Assembly (NCBI GenBank): GCA_040220235.1 | Contig: JAVJTO010000149.1 | Reading direction: 5' to 3' (one strand) | From: Coleofasciculus sp. B1-GNL1-01 | Lineage (GTDB): Bacteria; Cyanobacteriota; Cyanobacteriia; Cyanobacteriales; Coleofasciculaceae | DNA: 37,797 nt | Part shown: positions 15,891 to 24,553 of the stretch, piece by piece | Layout of the letters: every line of letters starts with the position of its first letter | Position numbering within the stretch: the stretch's first letter is position 1 | Notes under the pieces: generated by a model | Told to the model about the DNA's origin: nothing | Database searches by the model: none | What the model saw: only the letters and a program-made list of their open reading frames with translations | Position numbers and translations under genes: made by a program

Positions 15891-16496
15891 TCAAGCCGAT
15901 GGCGATTTAAGGGCGTTGCGAAACTTTTTCGCTGCCTCCAACCGAGAAGTCTGAGCCATCAACACGCAACGGGTGAGCAGGTCAATACTCAGTGTTGCCA
16001 GTTCGGGAATTTCGCTGCGGATAATTTTGTCGTAATGATTATCTCGTAGGCGATAGAGGCTGAATAAACCGTCTTGCCAAAACCAGACTTCTGGCACTCC
16101 TAATGCCTGATATCGCTTCAGTTTGCTAGTGTCACCACTGGTGACTACAACTTCGATAACCAGATCAGGAATGGATTTGGATGAACCAAAACAGTAAGAT
16201 TCATCGGCTTGAGCAGAAACGACTCCCTCTCGCTCTTGAGTCATGGAACCCGTGGGTTCAAATTCAATGGCGTTTTCTAGGCAAAATAACCCAATTAAAA
16301 AGCCAATGAGCCGACTAAACATTTCATGTTCGCGTCCCGGCATAATAATTTCAATAGTGCTGTTATAGTAAGCCAGTCGAATACCCGGAGAGTTGGCAAA
16401 ACCAGCCTGAATTAGCTTAAATTGTTCCCAGGTAATGCTGGAATACACAATACGTTGATCGGTGGAAGGTGGAGTGAGAAGGGGAACTTGGGTCAT
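15891..16496 (-). CDS. Uma2 (DUF820) family PD-(D/E)XK endonuclease-like protein
   Basis: ITWEQF, IEIIMPGREHE, QADESYC, PDLVIEVVVTS and YQALGVPEVWFW; probable start MTQVPLL at 16496. Confidence 0.92.
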   Translation of the reverse strand: MTQVPLLTPPSTDQRIVYSSITWEQFKLIQAGFANSPGIRLAYYNSTIEIIMPGREHEMFSRLIGFLIGLFCLENAIEFEPTGSMTQEREGVVSAQADESYCFGSSKSIPDLVIEVVVTSGDTSKLKRYQALGVPEVWFWQDGLFSLYRLRDNHYDKIIRSEIPELATLSIDLLTRCVLMAQTSRLEAAKKFRNALKSPSA

Positions 16497-16595
16497 AGAC
16501 GTACTATCACCGGGCGAACATTGTATTATTTTATGATAACGAAGCAAGGGTGTTGGACTGGAATAGAAACGTGCGATCGCACTACAGCACAACTC

Positions 16596-16994
16596 GTAGA
16601 ACCTGTAGGGTGCGTTAACGAAGTAATGCACCGAACCAACCATCTGGGTGATTCCAGAGGTGGCTTTAGCGATGAGCGATCGCGTCACGTCTTTGCTCTC
16701 TACTCCTGACCAGAATACCTCTGGAACCTCTCCCGATCAACTGATTCCTGAAGATAGTAACCCCCTTTGATCACGGCGATTAAAATCGCGGAACCACACC
16801 AAACAAAGTCAGCCGACGCGGACTTTAGTCAGTAGAACCTGTAGGGTGCGTTAACGAAGTAACGCACCGAACCAACCATCTGGGTGATTCCAGAGGTGGC
16901 TTTAGCGATGAGCGATCGCGTCATGTCTTTTCACTCTACTCCTGACCAGAATACCTCTGGAACCTCTCCCGATCAACTGATTCCTGAAGATAGT
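16596..16994 (+). repeat. Two direct copies of a 163-bp REP-headed unit (16596-16758 and 16832-16994)
   Basis: Near-identical sequence beginning GTAGAACCTGTAGGGTGCGTTAACGAAG, period 236 bp. Confidence 0.9.
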
Positions 16995-17096
16995 CACACC
17001 GAGATTCATGATGAAATCCACAACACTCAGGATATCGAGATGAAAATGCTCAGATTTAGTTAACAATTGATGCACCTTCATACAGGTTAAGTCATC

Positions 17097-17395
17097 CCAT
17101 AACTCGCCCACCACACATAATCACTCGCTGACGACACATAGAAACTTATTGACCACACTCAAATACTCGTTAACCACACATAATCACTCGCTGACGACAC
17201 ATAGAAACTCTTTGACCACACATAATTACTTGTTAACCACACTCAAATACTCGCTAACAAATATCAAAGACTCATTGACGAGAATCAAAGACTCGCTACC
17301 CACACATAAAGACTCGTGGACGAGTATCCAAGCTTGGTTAATCAGGCTCAAAGCTTCGTTGATGAGTGTCAAAGCTTGGTTGATGAGTGTCAGAC
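17097..17395. repeat. Degenerate 21-bp tandem repeat array (heptad-coding ORF 17149-17466 of doubtful status)
   Basis: Units such as ACCACACATAATCACTCGCTG / ACGACACATAGAAACTTATTG / ACCACACTCAAATACTCGTTA, about 14 units. Confidence 0.75.
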
Positions 17396-17568
17396 TCAGC
17401 CAACCTGAGCAAAAACCCTGGAACGAGAGGGTTAGTTCACAGAATTTGGACTTCAGCGAGGAGTGAGAGAATTGATTAGCCTGTCAGAGGAGGTTAGGGA
17501 GGGAGTGCTTGAGTGATAAATCTTGAAACGCTTATCCTAGAATTTACGCAAAGCTTCTATCTGTAACT

Positions 17569-17655: not shown

Positions 17656-20600
17656 TCAGGGAGAATGGCGTAATCTATAATGCAGGAGTTGCAGATTATT
17701 ACGGTAAAGAATAGTATTGGGATGATTAGAGCCTAACGTGCGATCGGCAATGGCTAAAGCGTCTAGATAAAGCGGTTCAGCTTCCTGGTAGCGTCCTTGA
17801 AAAAAGTAGAGTCCTGCTAAATTATCTAGGCTTTGTGCGACATCGGCATGATTGTCTCCTAGCAGGTGTTTTCTCAGTGCTAAAGCCTCTAGATAAAGCG
17901 GTTCCGTTTCCTGGTAGCGTCCTTGAGATTTGTAGAGTAATGCTAAATTATTTAGGCTAGTAACAACATAGGGATGATTGTCTCCTAGCAAACGTTTGTA
18001 CAGTGCTAAGGCGTCTAGAAAAAGCGGTTCAGCTTCCTGGTAGCGTCCTTGAGATTTGTAGAGTAATGCTAAATTATTTAGGCTAGTAGCGACAGAGGGA
18101 TGACTTGCTCCCAGCAGGCGTTTGTACAGTGCTAAGGCTTCTAGATAAAAAGGTTCAGCTTCCTCGTAGCGTCCTTGAAAACGGTATAATTCTGCTAAAT
18201 TATTCAGGCTAGTAGCAACATCAGGATGATTTTCTCCCAGCAGGCGTTTTTTCAGTTTTAAGGTGTCTAGATAAAGAGGTTCAGCTTCCTGGTAGCGTCC
18301 TTGAGATTTGTAGAGTTCTGCTAAATTATTCAGGCTAGTCGCAACATCAGGATGACTTTCTCCTAGCAGGTGTTTTCTCAGTACTAAAGCATCTAGATAA
18401 AGAGGTTCAGCTTCTTCGTAGCGTCCTTGAGATTTGTAGAGTTGTGCTAAACAACTCAGGCTAGTAGCAACATAGAGATGATTGTCTCCCAGCAGGCGTT
18501 TGTACAGCGCTAAAGCGTCTAGATAAAGAGGTTCAGCTTCCTCGTAGCGTCCTTGAGAATCGTAGAGTAATGCTAAATTATGCAGGCTGGTAGCAACATC
18601 GGAATGACTTTCTCCCAGCAGGCGTTTTCTCAGTTTTAAGGTGTCTAGATAAAGAGGTTCAGCTTCCTGGTAGCGTCCTTGAGATTTGTAGAGTTCTGCT
18701 AAATTATTCAGGCTAGTAGCAACATCAGGATGACTTTCTCCTAGTAGGTGTTTTCTCAGTGCTAAAGCATCTAGATAAAGAGGTTCAGCTTCTTCGTAGC
18801 GTCCTTGAGATTTGTAGAGTTGTGCTAAACAACTCAGGCTAGTAGCAACATAGAGATGATTGTCTCCCAGCAGGCGTTTGTACCGCGCTAAAGCCTCTAG
18901 ATAAAGAGGTTCAGCTTCCTGGTAGCGTCCTTGAAAACGGTATAATTCTGCTAAATTATTCAGGCTAGTCGCAACATCGGAATGATTGTCTCCCAGCAGG
19001 CGTTTTCTCAGTTTTAAGGTGTCTAGATAAAGAGGTTCAGCTTCCTGGTAGCGTCCTTGAAATTTGTAGAGTTGTGCTAAATTATTCAGGCTAGTCGCAA
19101 CATCAGGATGACTTTCTCCTAGCAGGTGTTTTCTCAGTGCTAAAGCATCTAGATAAAGAGGTTCAGCTTCCTCGTAGCGTCCTTGAGATTTGTAGAGTTG
19201 TGCTAAACAACTCAGGCTAGTAGCAACATAGAGATGATTGTCTCCCAGCAGGCGTTTGTACCGCGCTAAAGCCTCTAGATAAAGAGGTTCAGCTTCCTCG
19301 TAGCGTCCTTGAGAAGAGTAGAGTTGTGCTAAATTATTCAAGCTAGCAGCAACATGGGGATGATTTTCTCCCAGCAGGCGTTTGCACAGGGCTAAAGTTT
19401 CTAGATAAAGCGGTTCAGCTTCCTCGTAGCGTCCTTGAGAAGAGTAGAGTCCTGCTAAATTATTCAGGCTAATAGCAACATGGGGATGATTTTCTCGCAG
19501 CAGACGTTTGTACAGCGCTAAAGCCTCTAGATAAACAGGTTCAGCTTCCTCGTAGCGTCCTTGAGAAGAGTAGAGTTTTGCTAAATTATTCAAGCTAGTA
19601 GCAACATTGGGATGATTGTCTCCCAGCAGGCGTTTGTACAGCGCTAAAGCCTCTAGATAAACAGGTTCAGCTTCCTCGTAGCGTCCTTGAGAACGGTAGA
19701 GTTCTGCTAAACCACTCAGGCTAGTAGCAACATCGGGATGATTTTCTCCCAGCAGGCGTTTTGTCAGTGCTAAAGCCTCTAGATAAAGAGGTTCTGCTTC
19801 CTGGTAACGTCCTTGATAATGGTAGAGTTTTGCTAAATTATTCAAGCTAGCAGCAACATTGGGATGATTGTCTCCCAGCAGACGTTTTCTCAGGGCTAAA
19901 GCGTCTAGATAAAGAGGTTCTGCTTCCTGGTAGCGTCCTTGATAATAGTAGAGTTCTGCTAAATCATTCAGACTAATAGCAACATGGGGATGATTGTCTC
20001 CCAGCAGTCGTTTTCTCAGCACTAAAGCCTCTAAATAAACAGGTTCAGCTTCCTGGTAGCGTCCTTGAGATTCGTAGAGTCCGGCTAAATTATTCAGGCT
20101 AGTAGCAACATAGGGATGATTTTCTCCCAGCAGGCGTTTGAATAGTGCTAAACTCTCTAGATAAAAAGGTTCAGCTTCCTCGTAGCGTCCTTGAAAAAGG
20201 TATAGTTGTGCTAAATCATTCAAGCTAGTAGCAACATTGGGATGACTTTCTCCCAGCAGACATTTTCTCAGTGCTAAAGCCTCTAGATAAAGAGGTTCAG
20301 CTTCCTGGTAGCGTCCTTGATCATTGTAGAGTCCTGCTAAATTATTCAGGCTAGTAGCAACATCGGGATGATTTTCTCCCAGCCGACGTTTGTACAGCGC
20401 TAAAGCCTTTAGATAAAGCGGTTCAGCTTCCTGGTAGCGTCCTTGAGATTTGTAGAGTCCGGCTAAATTATTCAGGCTATTAGCAACATAGGGATGATTG
20501 TCTCCCAGCCGACGTTTTCTCAGTGCTAAAGCATCTAGATAAAGAGGTTCAGCTTCCTCGTAGCATCCTTGAAAAAGGTAGAGTTGTGCTAAATCATTCA

Positions 20601-22290
20601 AGCTAGTAGCAACATTGGGATGATTTTCTCCCAAACGTTGGACAGTAACAGATAGACAATCCTTACACCAAGGTTCAGCTTGATTATAGAGTCCTTGACC
20701 TTTGTAAAAACGACCTAATCCAACAAAAGGCACAATTAAATCATCATCCGTCAACCAGTCTTGTTGACTCCTCGCTGCTTCTGCAATATGAGGAATCACC
20801 GGATTGACTGCTTTAATCTCTGCCAATGTCGGCGTCTCTGGAATTTTCCTGGCTTCCCCTACCATCACCCGACAAAAATCCCGCTTCAACTCCTCCGCTA
20901 TCCCTGACGCTTCCCGCTTACTAATCAAAAATTCCCGAATCAGGGGATGTAATTGATACAACTCCTTCCCTTGACGCTGCACTAAATGCAGATTCACCAA
21001 CCCATAATCCCTAATTTCCTCCAACTCCTCCTCATCCATCTCTGTAAAACACGCCTCCACCAATCGCCAGGGAATTGGCGTCGCCGCAAATAAACTTAAC
21101 CCTATCCCCAACTCCCGCGCTGACTCATCTAATTCTTGCCAACTCAACTCAAACGCATCTCTTACCCCCAATTGCGCCGTCATATCAGCCTCTGACTTCG
21201 GCTTTTTCAGCGCTAACTGTTCCAACCGTTTCGCCTGCAACCGAGATAACATTTCCTGTAACGATAAATCCGGTTTTCGCCGCAAATATCGCCCCACCAA
21301 CTCCAAACCCAAGGGCAGATATCCCAACCAGCGACAGAGTTTTCGCCCTTCCCAGGGTTCGGATTGCAGCCGTTCTCGTCCAATCAGCGATTCTAACAAC
21401 GCCAATGCTGCTCTGGGTTTCAGAACATCCAGGGGTAACTGGCGAATCGACGCCCCCAAGTCTAACCGTGTCGTGATGAGTACCTTAAACCGAGAAGCAT
21501 CCGGGGGCAGATACTGCCGCACTTGCTGATAATCGGTGACATCATCAATAATAATCAGCACCGGTCCCGGCGGTAGCCAATTTCGCCAGCAGTACGCCAC
21601 CTGAAGTGGTAACTCTAACCCCTCTGGAATGGATAAGGGTAAATACGCCCTGGCAAATTGGACTATCTGAATCCCCAAATCCACACCTCGCCCATTCAAC
21701 CAGCACACGCCACCCAGGTAAACGGAATCTGGAAAACCTCTCTCCAAACCTCTCTCCTGCTCTTGAGAAGGCTTTGAATTCTCCCCCTTCCCTTGCAGGG
21801 AAGGGGGCTGGGGGGTTAGGTTTGATACGGTCACGTCTGTACGATTATGGGAATAGCGCCTAGCATATTGCAGCGCCAACTCGGTTTTCCCCACACCTCC
21901 CATCCCCGCCACCGCAGAAATAGCAACTTGCTGATTATCCTGTAACTGTTGATGTAGCGTAGCCAGGGCGGATTCTCGTCCCACAAACTGAACCACCCCA
22001 CTGAGGGGCAGATTCTGGGGAATACCTGTGGGTTGAGGCTGACGCTCTGATACTATCTCTTGTAAGATTGCCTTAATCGTCTCGGCATCAGCACCGTAAT
22101 AGGTAGGATTAATTTGAATATCCCCAGCTTGACCAATGTGACCGATATTAATATTGTGATCCCCTTCTTGCGCCACAATCTGGTCACCGCGAACAATCAC
22201 CGCATCCCGCAGCGCGATAATATCGGCTTCAGTATGGGAATGGGTAGCGACTCGGTTAAGAATTGCCTGTAATTGCTCAAGCGTGGTCAT
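17656..22290 (-). CDS. NLR-like STAND protein: EAD10-like N-terminus with amyloid-like motif, NB-ARC ATPase, and 23 kinesin-light-chain-type 42-aa TPRs
   Basis: FVGRE, Walker A GMGGVGKT, Walker B LIIIDDV, LITTR, GYLPLGL and LHPLIR; repeats of the form HPxVATSLNNLAxLYxxQGRYxEAEPLY. Confidence 0.95.
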   Translation of the reverse strand: MTTLEQLQAILNRVATHSHTEADIIALRDAVIVRGDQIVAQEGDHNINIGHIGQAGDIQINPTYYGADAETIKAILQEIVSERQPQPTGIPQNLPLSGVVQFVGRESALATLHQQLQDNQQVAISAVAGMGGVGKTELALQYARRYSHNRTDVTVSNLTPQPPSLQGKGENSKPSQEQERGLERGFPDSVYLGGVCWLNGRGVDLGIQIVQFARAYLPLSIPEGLELPLQVAYCWRNWLPPGPVLIIIDDVTDYQQVRQYLPPDASRFKVLITTRLDLGASIRQLPLDVLKPRAALALLESLIGRERLQSEPWEGRKLCRWLGYLPLGLELVGRYLRRKPDLSLQEMLSRLQAKRLEQLALKKPKSEADMTAQLGVRDAFELSWQELDESARELGIGLSLFAATPIPWRLVEACFTEMDEEELEEIRDYGLVNLHLVQRQGKELYQLHPLIREFLISKREASGIAEELKRDFCRVMVGEARKIPETPTLAEIKAVNPVIPHIAEAARSQQDWLTDDDLIVPFVGLGRFYKGQGLYNQAEPWCKDCLSVTVQRLGENHPNVATSLNDLAQLYLFQGCYEEAEPLYLDALALRKRRLGDNHPYVANSLNNLAGLYKSQGRYQEAEPLYLKALALYKRRLGENHPDVATSLNNLAGLYNDQGRYQEAEPLYLEALALRKCLLGESHPNVATSLNDLAQLYLFQGRYEEAEPFYLESLALFKRLLGENHPYVATSLNNLAGLYESQGRYQEAEPVYLEALVLRKRLLGDNHPHVAISLNDLAELYYYQGRYQEAEPLYLDALALRKRLLGDNHPNVAASLNNLAKLYHYQGRYQEAEPLYLEALALTKRLLGENHPDVATSLSGLAELYRSQGRYEEAEPVYLEALALYKRLLGDNHPNVATSLNNLAKLYSSQGRYEEAEPVYLEALALYKRLLRENHPHVAISLNNLAGLYSSQGRYEEAEPLYLETLALCKRLLGENHPHVAASLNNLAQLYSSQGRYEEAEPLYLEALARYKRLLGDNHLYVATSLSCLAQLYKSQGRYEEAEPLYLDALALRKHLLGESHPDVATSLNNLAQLYKFQGRYQEAEPLYLDTLKLRKRLLGDNHSDVATSLNNLAELYRFQGRYQEAEPLYLEALARYKRLLGDNHLYVATSLSCLAQLYKSQGRYEEAEPLYLDALALRKHLLGESHPDVATSLNNLAELYKSQGRYQEAEPLYLDTLKLRKRLLGESHSDVATSLHNLALLYDSQGRYEEAEPLYLDALALYKRLLGDNHLYVATSLSCLAQLYKSQGRYEEAEPLYLDALVLRKHLLGESHPDVATSLNNLAELYKSQGRYQEAEPLYLDTLKLKKRLLGENHPDVATSLNNLAELYRFQGRYEEAEPFYLEALALYKRLLGASHPSVATSLNNLALLYKSQGRYQEAEPLFLDALALYKRLLGDNHPYVVTSLNNLALLYKSQGRYQETEPLYLEALALRKHLLGDNHADVAQSLDNLAGLYFFQGRYQEAEPLYLDALAIADRTLGSNHPNTILYRNNLQLLHYRLRHSP
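17720..20630 (-). repeat. 126-bp intragenic tandem repeat array encoding the TPRs
   Basis: 23 highly conserved units with a 378-bp higher-order period (HLYVATSLSCL units at about 19230, 18850 and 18470). Confidence 0.95.
21721..21843. mobile_element. Palindromic MITE-like repeat inserted in frame in the NB-ARC domain
   Basis: CCCCCTTCCCT-TGC-AGGGAAGGGGG hairpin (21783-21807); encodes LTPQPPSLQGKGENSKP...RGLERG between the Walker A helix and YxGGVCW. Confidence 0.75.
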
Positions 22291-22297
22291 AGTTTGT

Positions 22298-22720
22298 AGA
22301 ACCCGTAGGGTGCGTTAGCGACAGCGTAACGCACCGAACCAACTATCAAAACTCGTCGAGTACGTTAACAAAGTAACACACCAAATCAATTACCAGAATC
22401 CGTAGGGTGCGTTAACGAAGTAACGCACCAAACCAACCATGAGAACTCGTCGGGTACGTTAACAAAATAACGCACCAAACCAATTACCAGAACCCGTCGG
22501 GTATGTTAACAAAATAACGCACCAAACCAACCATCAGAACCCGTCGGGTACGTTAACAAAATAACGCACCGAACCAACCATCAGAACCCGTAGGGTGCGT
22601 TAACGAAGTAACGCACCAAACCAACCATGAGAACCCGTCGGGTACGTTAACAAAGCAGACACACCAATGATGGGGGTACAGGTGCGTTACGCTATCGCTA
22701 ACGCACCCTACAAACCCTAC
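22298..22720. repeat. REP array upstream of RAYT: 8 direct 47-bp units plus one inverted REP
   Basis: Unit AGAACCC-GT(A/C)G-GGT(G/A)CGTTA-AC(G/A)AA(G/A)-TAACGCACC-(A/G)AACCAACCATC; inverted REP at 22681-22711. Confidence 0.93.
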
Positions 22721-22773
22721 AAATAGATCTCATCGGTGGTATTTTAAAATAAACAACTCACCTCAGAATACCT

Positions 22774-23325
22774 ATGCCTAACTACCGCCGAACTAAACAT
22801 CCTGGTGGTACTTATTTTCTCACCCAAGTCACACATCATCGTCAACCTTGGCTAATCAGCGATATCGCACGACTTGCACTCCGCACGGCAATCACCCATG
22901 TTCGTCACAACTATCCCTTCACTATCAACGCCTTTGTACTTTTACCCAATCATTTCCATTGTTTATGGACATTACCAGAAGGAGATGGCGATTTATCAAC
23001 TCGACTGCGATTAATTAAAACCTTTGTTACGAAACGCTACGGCAATCAATTGGAAATTTATGCCGATATTTCTTCCTCTCGACAAAAACGACAAGAACGC
23101 AATCTATGGCAAAGACGATTTTGGGAACATCTAATTCGGGATGATAGAGATTTTGCTAATCATTGCGATTATATCCATTACAATCCGGTGCGACATCAAT
23201 TATGCCAGAGTCCGCAGGATTGGCAATTTTCAACGATTCATCGATTTATTAATCAAGGTATTTATCCGCCCAATTGGGGGATGAGTGAAATTCCAGAGAT
23301 GTTTAACAGTATTTGGGATATATAG
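22774..23325 (+). CDS. rayT: REP-associated tyrosine transposase (RAYT/TnpA-REP, Y1 HUH)
   Basis: MPNYRR...GGTYFLT, HUH motif LPNHFHCLW, LWQRRFWEHLIRD and DYIHYNPVRH; flanked by GTAG REPs. Confidence 0.95.
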   Translation: MPNYRRTKHPGGTYFLTQVTHHRQPWLISDIARLALRTAITHVRHNYPFTINAFVLLPNHFHCLWTLPEGDGDLSTRLRLIKTFVTKRYGNQLEIYADISSSRQKRQERNLWQRRFWEHLIRDDRDFANHCDYIHYNPVRHQLCQSPQDWQFSTIHRFINQGIYPPNWGMSEIPEMFNSIWDI

Positions 23326-23331
23326 TTAGTC

Positions 23332-23527
23332 GTAGGGTGCGTTAACGAAGTAACGCACCGAACCAACCATCAGAACCCGTCGAGTACGTTAACGAAGTAA
23401 CGCACCCAACCAATTATCAGAACTCGTCGGGTACGTTAACAAAGCAGATACACCGATGATGAGGGTAAAGGTTAAAGGTGTCTTACGCTGTCGAAAGGTG
23501 CGTTACGCTGTCGCTAACGCACCCTAC
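23332..23527. repeat. REP array downstream of RAYT: 3 direct units plus an inverted REP
   Basis: Same 47-bp unit; inverted REP at 23497-23527 preceded by a partial duplicate and followed by (G/A)AATGAC heptamers. Confidence 0.92.
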
Positions 23528-23551
23528 GAATGACGAATGACAAATGACGAA

Positions 23552-24553
23552 TTACGATTTCTTCTTTATCCTAATCTCTCCAGCACGGGCAATATTCCCG
23601 AAATTTACATTACCTGAACCTGAACTATCAACGGTTTGAGTTCCTGAGGCTATAGCCACATCTCTACCTGCAATAACTCTCCCCATTGTCTCAGCTACAT
23701 CTGCTTCTACTGCTTCCCATCCATTCTCCGGTAAACCCTTCCCTCCCCGCAATAATGACACCGCAAAATCCTCGGTGACTAAATCAAAGAAAGGGATTTG
23801 TTCTTGTTGATATTCGTGCTGCACTGTTTCGGGAACCGCTTTTCCCAGATAATTCATTAAATTCGACACCCGCACCACTGTATCTCCTGGTTGATTCCCC
23901 GCCCCTTGCAGCGCTTCGATTAAATGATAGGTGTAGACACTCATCGCCCCATCCCCACGAATCCAAGACGACTGTGTGCCTCTTGAGGAGGTAAAAACCA
24001 CCCGTCCTTCACCCTGTTTCAGTTCCTCAATAAACTGTTTCGGTAACGCCGTTTGTGCAAAATCTGTGGGTAGTTTAATCGGGACAATTTTATCCTTTGC
24101 TGTTGCCATCCCTTGAGCATGACAACTATCAATAATTACCAGCAATCGTTTCGCACAAATCTGGCGTATTGCCTCGGTAAAGGCTTGAGCCGAAACTGCC
24201 GAGTCGGGGATATCCACGGCTTCAATATCATGTTGAATCAAATAGTATTTACCCGTAGACTGATCTAGCCAGCCGTGACCAGAATAATAGATAATAATCG
24301 TCGCCTCAGTATCCGCCGCCGCTTGTGCTTTCAGCCAGGTTAATCCATCAACTATCGCCTGACGGGTTGCCCCAGCATCATACAATAAACGGATATGCTG
24401 TTCATCATTCAGATAACCACAAAGATTTGGATCAGTGAGAATTGACTGAATGGCGTGCATATCCTTTACCGTCACCGGAAGTGACCATTTCGGGTAAGCG
24501 GATTCACCCACACCAATGAGTAAAGCGTAACCATGAGAGAATGTAGTGGTCAA
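23552..24553 (-). CDS. Caspase-like peptidase C14 (metacaspase/orthocaspase type) with a short G/N/I-rich C-terminal tail
   Basis: YALLIGVG, YYSGHG (His), IDSCHA (Cys), SVYTYHLIEALQG and QIP; TTG start. Confidence 0.93.
   Translation of the reverse strand: MTTTFSHGYALLIGVGESAYPKWSLPVTVKDMHAIQSILTDPNLCGYLNDEQHIRLLYDAGATRQAIVDGLTWLKAQAAADTEATIIIYYSGHGWLDQSTGKYYLIQHDIEAVDIPDSAVSAQAFTEAIRQICAKRLLVIIDSCHAQGMATAKDKIVPIKLPTDFAQTALPKQFIEELKQGEGRVVFTSSRGTQSSWIRGDGAMSVYTYHLIEALQGAGNQPGDTVVRVSNLMNYLGKAVPETVQHEYQQEQIPFFDLVTEDFAVSLLRGGKGLPENGWEAVEADVAETMGRVIAGRDVAIASGTQTVDSSGSGNVNFGNIARAGEIRIKKKS

Follow-up and report, generated by a model that had tools for sequence, protein, structure and literature searches.

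A predicted sensor-caspase gene pair of the cyanobacterium Coleofasciculus that shares an EAD10 core and may be coupled in amyloid form

In the gene pairs described for bacterial amyloid signalling sequences (BASS), an upstream effector carries a motif at its C-terminus and a collinear gene encodes an NB-ARC/tetratricopeptide repeat (TPR) protein of the NOD-like receptor (NLR) type with the motif at its N-terminus; besides Bell proteins, TIR2, CHAT, alpha/beta-hydrolase and guanylate cyclase effectors have been published for such pairs (Dyrka et al., 10.1101/2020.01.06.895854). One of these motifs, BASS11, relays antiphage death in the Bab/Agp system (Ibarlosa et al., 10.1101/2024.11.07.622273). 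Effector-associated domains (EADs) are another described means of coupling, and EAD10 is counted among the alpha+beta adaptors (Kaur et al. 2020, PMC7159879; 2021, PMC8195603). We analysed a 37,797-nucleotide stretch of Coleofasciculus sp. B1-GNL1-01 (contig JAVJTO010000149.1 of assembly GCA_040220235.1; hereafter the window), in which a C14 caspase-like protease and an NB-ARC/TPR protein headed by EAD10 are encoded side by side and share a motif. Judged from their sequences, the two are predicted to form a two-gene sensor-effector module, composed of an NB-ARC/TPR sensor with EAD10 and a C14 caspase with an EAD10 beta-core tail. Homotypic coupling of sensor and caspase, by whatever structure, is very probably real and family-wide, and an amyloid form of this coupling is our leading reading, towards which we lean modestly. 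The features that carry the argument are:

23552..24553, minus strand: stand-alone C14 caspase-like protease, 333 aa, TTG start (Pfam PF00656, E 1e-17)
23567..23689, minus strand: motif in the caspase tail, aa 289-329 (18/41 identities to the NLR head)
17656..22290, minus strand: NLR-type sensor, 1544 aa, with EAD10, NB-ARC and TPR regions (Pfam)
22054..22290, minus strand: EAD10 domain, sensor aa 1-79 (PF19954, 80 bits against a cut-off of 24.1)
22111..22233, minus strand: sensor copy of the shared motif, aa 20-60 (ungapped alignment to the caspase tail)
17683..20622, minus strand: TPR array of about 23 near-identical 42-aa units, presumed ligand-binding part (Pfam)

The open reading frame (ORF) listing and Pfam agree with the first-pass annotation in that a caspase with intact catalytic dyad stands beside a co-oriented NB-ARC/TPR protein. 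The catalytic domain of the caspase spans about residues 8-256, and its dyad residues, His93 (24275-24277) and Cys144 (24122-24124), are invariant across an alignment of 107 sequences, which comprises the window caspase and 106 homologues (120 were listed, and 14 longer sequences were excluded). AlphaFold2 models the protein with the caspase fold (predicted template modelling score, pTM, 0.84) that together with the His-Cys dyad characterizes Peptidase C14, and Foldseek matches the model to GSU0716, MALT1, caspases and metacaspases; residues 298-333 have a predicted local distance difference test (pLDDT) value <50 and no fold is predicted for them in the monomer. At the sequence level, a comparison with solved structures returned only metacaspase-4 at E 0.18, and the NCBIfam EACC1-type caspase model reached 92 bits, below its cut-off of 140. 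The sensor possesses an NB-ARC domain with Walker A (aa 129-136) and Walker B (aa 246-250) motifs followed by C-terminal repeats, as expected of a signal-transduction ATPase with numerous domains (STAND) or bacterial NLR, and both the number of TPR units and a few TPR positions differ between strains. Its start, previously noted for a resemblance to EAD10, is a full Pfam match and the one PF19954 match in the whole genome. AlphaFold2 places helices at residues 4-15 and 21-30, strands at 31-34, 37-42, 45-52 and 58-60 and a last helix at 69-83 of this domain (pLDDT 81, pTM 0.66).

The tail of the caspase and the head of the sensor align without gaps over 41 residues, of which 18 are identical. 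The first-pass annotation had recognized an 18-residue part of this match with its nine identities; the weaker preceding match that it added was out of register, the correct register placing RVIAGRDVAIASG opposite DIIALRDAVIVRG. The local alignment score of tail and head is 86, compared to a maximum of 53 among 20,000 composition-preserving shuffles of the tail, and in phmmer searches of the 85,916 six-frame ORFs of the genome each found, apart from itself, only the other (E 0.002 and 0.0005). Codons of the two copies agree at 26, 23 and 10 of 41 first, second and third positions, respectively, which argues for an old conservation at the protein level; a recent DNA duplication as the source of the match was rejected on account of the low agreement at third positions. 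We also rejected a former fusion split by the transposase gene that now lies between the two genes, as tail and head are homologous copies with each gene having its own ends, and as the pair is likewise separate where the transposase is missing.

Compared with the published BASS pairs (10.1101/2020.01.06.895854), the locus has the same layout, since adjacent collinear genes carry the motif at the effector C-terminus and the NLR N-terminus. The motif also agrees with the published type (Q/N/G/V/I-rich, K/P/L-poor, 20-40 aa, beta propensity), as judged by composition percentiles and the strands of the EAD10 model, with the caspase tail in the top 0.6% among the C-termini of 5,716 genome ORFs for its Q/N/G/V/I content and the sensor motif in the top 0.02% of genome N-termini. 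The multicellular cyanobacterial host and the existence of all-in-one fusions are further likenesses. In contrast to those pairs, the effector is a C14 caspase and thus outside the four non-Bell types listed, the sensor motif is embedded in EAD10 helices, the window copies are without the BASS3 core, and the caspase family often has several sensors per caspase and tails that bear two motif classes. EAD coupling (PMC7159879, PMC8195603) is resembled in that an EAD10-headed NLR is matched by a second copy on the effector of the adjacent gene and in that EAD10 is found with VMAP and STAND components. It differs in that the effector copy in the window is the beta core only: the tail corresponds to the end of the second EAD10 helix and the beta region, and the first and last helices are absent. 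Hence there is no second full EAD10 copy on the effector; PF19954 does not match the window tail, and the tails of relatives match only profile positions 32-62. The Bab/Agp system (10.1101/2024.11.07.622273) likewise runs from an N-terminal motif on a TPR sensor to a C-terminal motif on an effector, and there the amyloid relay is proven; unlike the window pair, it uses a membrane-targeting Bell effector, a non-STAND sensor and another motif. The animal apoptosome and inflammasome, in which a STAND sensor recruits an effector by a homotypic adaptor and a caspase is activated by proximity, and the fungal NWD2/HET-S pair with its amyloid adaptor between STAND sensor and effector are analogies and not families to which the locus belongs; in animals the adaptor is a helical death fold that precedes the caspase, whereas in the window it is a beta motif at the caspase C-terminus.

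To place the pair in its wider family, we surveyed 401 genomes of the cyanobacterial class in a first, non-exhaustive pass, in which related genomes are not independent (L and G numbers below are our handles for loci and genomes). EAD10 occurs in 36 of the 401 and the caspase family (E <=1e-20) in 44; the caspase is present in 25 of the 36 EAD10 genomes vs 19 of the 365 others, and in G094 the EAD10 match is the caspase tail itself. EAD10 heads diverse sensors, often several per locus, with NACHT, NB-ARC/TPR, WD40, VMAP, CHASE2, GUN4 or FGE regions, and its usual partner is a single caspase whose tail carries the beta core alone. In L106, a caspase and a GUN4 protein stand in such an arrangement, with the EAD10 core common to both. 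Further effectors with an EAD10 core are TIR proteins, which bear it C-terminally, and CHAT proteins, which bear it N-terminally. Among the 55 loci found through the caspase, 29 (Nostocales and Okeania, within L007-L055) have the caspase fused C-terminally to a STAND protein, giving all-in-one genes of STAND, repeats and caspase. Stand-alone caspases of L001, L003-L006 and L008 have tails that match the head of the downstream gene; for those of L013, L016 and L033 the match to the downstream head was not significant.

An unbiased test of this pairing started from 52 of the 55 caspase matches, picked by the protease domain (three fragments were dropped), of which 42 had a tail and a downstream ORF on the same strand. 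At a score cut-off of 45, the head of the own neighbour was matched in 24 of the 42; among 310 other ORFs from these loci, taken as background, 9% reached this score (permutation p 5e-5). Tail and head share a TIR domain in four loci and an unnamed helical segment in five, and in most others the match consists of beta motifs. The beta motifs could be compared by class in 28 loci, the window tail being too divergent to be classed: tails with motif A only (12 loci) accompany 21 A and no B sensors, tails with motif B only (five loci) one A and nine B sensors, and double tails (ten loci) 16 A and 15 B sensors. In a tree of 51 caspase domains the adaptor types are interleaved, with L164 inside a class A clade. 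The caspases of L164 and L113 are 91% identical over 293 aa and have different tails, each of which is matched by its own NB-ARC/TPR neighbour; on the partner sensor of L164 the motif stands naked at the N-terminus. Since tail and head are adjacent on the DNA, a single recombination could replace both together. Pairing and covariation in homologous loci, on which the first-pass annotation had staked its proposal, are borne out by the 24 matching pairs, the class concordance and this co-swap.

Two replacements of the beta motif were observed in the adaptor position. In L171, L172, L175 and L180, caspase-TIR genes are followed by TPR or WD40 sensors headed by TIR. In five further loci (L158:5794-6933, L160:6354-7376, L161:6033-7061, L162:6322-7374 and L165:6123-6773), a helical adaptor of about 50 aa is found on the caspase C-terminus and the sensor N-terminus; the L160 copy has no Pfam match at E 10, and the segment is a candidate new effector-associated domain. 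In L183, L184 and L124, the caspase has another beta-type tail, whose counterpart is the N-terminus of a VMAP protein encoded at a distance of a few genes.

Several observations weigh against an amyloid-coupled module, the first of which concern the pairing as such. The other 18 of the 42 caspases are without a matching downstream head. Fine-scale covariation is weak, as a caspase tail placed its own sensor first among the 79 in no more than 4 of 23 loci, window included. PADLOC identified no characterised system, its matches to the pair being generic TPR and caspase models. In the fused caspases, drifted G/N/I-rich tails persist without a partner. G401, one of eight congeneric genomes, encodes a sensor head in an open frame but yielded no caspase match anywhere. 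In G417, the sensor head sits on a broken gene with no close caspase. Partnerless tails, caspase-less sensors and the transposase between the genes would suit a tail that is a relic or self-assembly element, which arose from a split fusion or an ancient duplication at the junction and has ceased to couple the caspase to this sensor. We regard this as quite improbable: third codon positions have reached saturation although the residues persist, and a change of tail goes with a change of head from one lineage and adaptor type to another. Across six Coleofasciculus copies the tail varies at 5 of 41 positions, about like the caspase core (27 of 276) and as a relic might, and yet its synonymous changes exceed replacements by 11 to 5; the sensor motif varies at one of 41 positions in the same copies.

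The second group concerns the amyloid form. Neither window copy, reading GDIQIN and GEIRIK, has the G-phi-Q-phi-G core of the RIP homotypic interaction motif (RHIM) tetrad; a relaxed phi-Q/H-phi-G tetrad, likewise missing from both, was found in 50 of 79 heads of related sensors and in 10 of 23 tails. A profile of canonical tails found the window head at E 0.4-0.9 and missed the window tail; with intermediates added, the head came first in the genome at E 3e-5, the tail again matching weakly (E 0.03-0.5). The window copies are hence linked to the canonical form of the motif only through intermediates; the G417 sensor has a head of the window type that carries the canonical core. AlphaFold2 folds EAD10, motif included, as a compact alpha+beta monomer, the same caspase family elsewhere uses adaptors that are not of amyloid type (TIR, helical), and no experiment on any EAD10 motif was found in the literature.

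It is thus conceivable that the same coupling works without amyloid, with EAD10 as a folded adaptor on which the caspase tail docks by strand exchange or as a short beta-solenoid stack, in a stoichiometric complex like the apoptosome. The compact EAD10 model, the listing of EAD10 as an alpha+beta homotypic adaptor in Kaur et al. 2020 (PMC7159879), the replacement of the motif by TIR or a helical adaptor, the missing RHIM core and weak, sub-threshold matches between tails and the Pfam beta-roll families YadA head (E 0.14) and TPS (E 0.017) all speak for such docking. An effector copy that has no helices and no fold alone is, however, unlike a domain-domain EAD pair, the L164 sensor bears its motif naked, and the motifs of relatives come close to published BASS sets, down to a tandem cassette that Bell proteins have too. 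On balance we consider folded docking unlikely, if far from negligible. The compact model itself fits either a folded docking adaptor or a motif silenced by its helices. Structural searches were silent: the EAD10 model gave no Foldseek match at E 0.001 and a best Z of 4.5 against 48,161 chains, and the EAD10 profile found nothing significant among sequences of solved structures. A predicted complex of three EAD10 domains and one caspase tail scored 0.00, which is uninformative either way, as was an atlas search with the tail of a homologue (best score 0.77).

The likeness to BASS sets that argues for the amyloid form was judged by eye against the training data of PMC8086366 supplement 1, which contain sets C03 and C09. 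The EAD10 core consensus QLGKYNVNIGxGxDIxIGD resembles the first two-thirds of set C03 (e.g. C03_s049) and the class B motif resembles set C09, in which the Bell-side tail C09_s051 joins B and A in tandem, as do the caspase tails P0011 and P0059. Going by content and set size, C03 would correspond to BASS3 and C09 probably to BASS6; BASS3 motifs formed fibrils and prions (10.1101/2020.01.06.895854). The amyloid/BASS reading of the first-pass annotation therefore keeps the close resemblance of the relatives' motifs and the pairing, and loses the simple form in which BASS or RHIM alone would describe the adaptor position, given window copies without the core, a motif lying inside a compact EAD10 model, and TIR or helical adaptors in the same position of the same caspase family. 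A protease as effector is also less unusual than it had suggested, as BASS motifs on CHAT proteases and TIR are published (10.1101/2020.01.06.895854).

As for novelty, the literature already covers EAD coupling and BASS gene pairs whose effector is a CHAT or TIR protein, and the reading of EAD10 as a BASS motif and of a C14 caspase as a BASS-type effector is apparently new. We found no paper making either connection, bioRxiv figures and supplements, which may list such pairs, and most subscription papers lying outside the scope of the search. The word amyloid is absent from the main text of PMC7159879, the EAD10 passages of PMC7159879 and PMC8195603 name no caspase partner, two supplements of PMC7159879 hold no EAD10 text, and "caspase" occurs 0 times in the accessible text of 10.1101/2024.11.07.622273. 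Neither connection appears in the accessible portions of PMC13506858, PMC7889193, PMC12261475, PMC10907252 and PMC13581612.

The distribution of the cassette bears on what the coupling is for. The closest named relatives (95-97%) are Coleofasciculus assemblies, and the caspase adjoins the sensor head in five of the eight congeneric genomes, two of these five being without the transposase; G405 and G408 have no close caspase. The cassette was found at two chromosomal sites, with a related pair on a Calothrix plasmid, and sensor length ranges from 839 to 1544 aa among the Coleofasciculus copies through TPR copy number. A metagenome scan with the sensor head returned two near-identical copies only. 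Such patchy presence, two sites and a plasmid copy, as well as variable repeats and STAND, TIR or CHAT neighbours of the kind that would be typical of defence loci, speak against the possibility that the coupling serves a signal other than phage (kin recognition, stress or filament development) through limited proteolysis and not cell death. We hold that possibility to be very improbable, even though the cassette has no substrate or pore gene and EAD10 also heads CHASE2, GUN4 and VMAP proteins; the Pfam gasdermin profile had no match in the genome, which says little about bacterial gasdermins.

A gene of 305-312 aa lies directly upstream of class A caspases in other loci (L087:10079-10993, L088:12662-13591, L104:16062-16976, L209:7484-8401, L211:6524-7459 and L213:1941-2858). 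The copies tested had no Pfam or PADLOC match and one query did not find the 305-aa gene in the Coleofasciculus genome, so that no substrate is identified in this way; the product is a possible co-factor or substrate. Caspases of other clades are preceded by different unnamed families, one of about 360 aa (L112:3285) and one of about 510 aa (L092:17654).

The first-pass annotation did not mention the transposase and repeat arrays that separate the two genes. The gap measures 1,261 bp and is occupied by the transposase on the opposite strand; together with a repeat inside the sensor gene, the features concerned are:

22774..23325, plus strand: REP-associated tyrosine transposase (RAYT; REP, repetitive extragenic palindromic) (NF047646, 185 bits)
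22307..22714, no strand: array of 47-bp REP-like repeats and palindromes, located between NLR start and transposase (repeat families D1, D2)
23331..23530, no strand: REP-like repeats, located between transposase and caspase stop (repeat search)
21724..21846, minus strand: dispersed repeat that extends NB-ARC in frame behind Walker A, aa 149-189 (six-copy alignment)

The 32-nt palindrome of the first array has 39 matches in the genome. RAYT is missing between caspase and sensor in G402, G403 and L003, and the gap shrinks to about 0.1-0.2 kb in G402 and G403; RAYT is a polymorphic insertion outside the sensor-caspase system. The insertion in NB-ARC takes differing forms between strains and has 44 blastn matches in the genome. 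Promoter and terminator scans of the window gave nothing decisive, the excess of signals stemming from the TPR repeats. Eight metatranscriptome runs match part of the stretch, and in the four examined, as contigs only, cover is flat across genes and spacers. Elsewhere in the window, positions 16902-17466 downstream of the NLR are of low complexity and contain short tandem-like units; they include an ORF rich in T, H, S and L repeats (17149-17466) and are probably non-coding repeats. A Uma2-family gene lies next to the NLR (15891-16688; PADLOC candidate model PDC-S17, E 1e-64), Uma2 genes being common in cyanobacteria, and a CHAT-domain protease gene is found at the left end (247-1467).

Under the amyloid reading, a ligand would bind the variable TPR array, upon which NB-ARC would exchange nucleotide and oligomerise. 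The clustered EAD10 heads would expose or align their beta cores, which the EAD10 helices may keep folded and silent beforehand, and the aligned cores would template the unfolded caspase tails into a cross-beta stack of the BASS amyloid type, crowding the caspase domains so that they are activated by proximity. The outcome would most likely be defensive cell death or arrest in the filamentous cyanobacterium. As a more tentative step, on which we stay slightly to the doubtful side, EAD10 might be a caged amyloid signalling motif, with a BASS3- or BASS6-like core restrained by helices on many different sensors. A single C14 caspase in each locus would read them via a naked copy, and caspases with two tandem motifs would respond to two sensor classes. 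If this were true, cyanobacteria would possess an amyloid-nucleated platform of caspase activation that unites the schemes proposed for EADs and for BASS, and one caspase family would accept adaptors of amyloid, TIR or helical type interchangeably.

Proven amyloid signalling so far drives membrane-targeting effectors or kinases, and an amyloid stack that activates a caspase would give bacteria a counterpart to the inflammasome, built on another adaptor chemistry. To our knowledge, few activators of cyanobacterial caspases have been described. The family contains its own natural controls, among them tails with one or two motifs, a recent co-swap, fused forms, and loci in which TIR or a helical adaptor stands in for the motif. 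The coupling described here would supply cyanobacterial caspases with a concrete route of activation and would give EAD10, hitherto a prediction, a mechanism.

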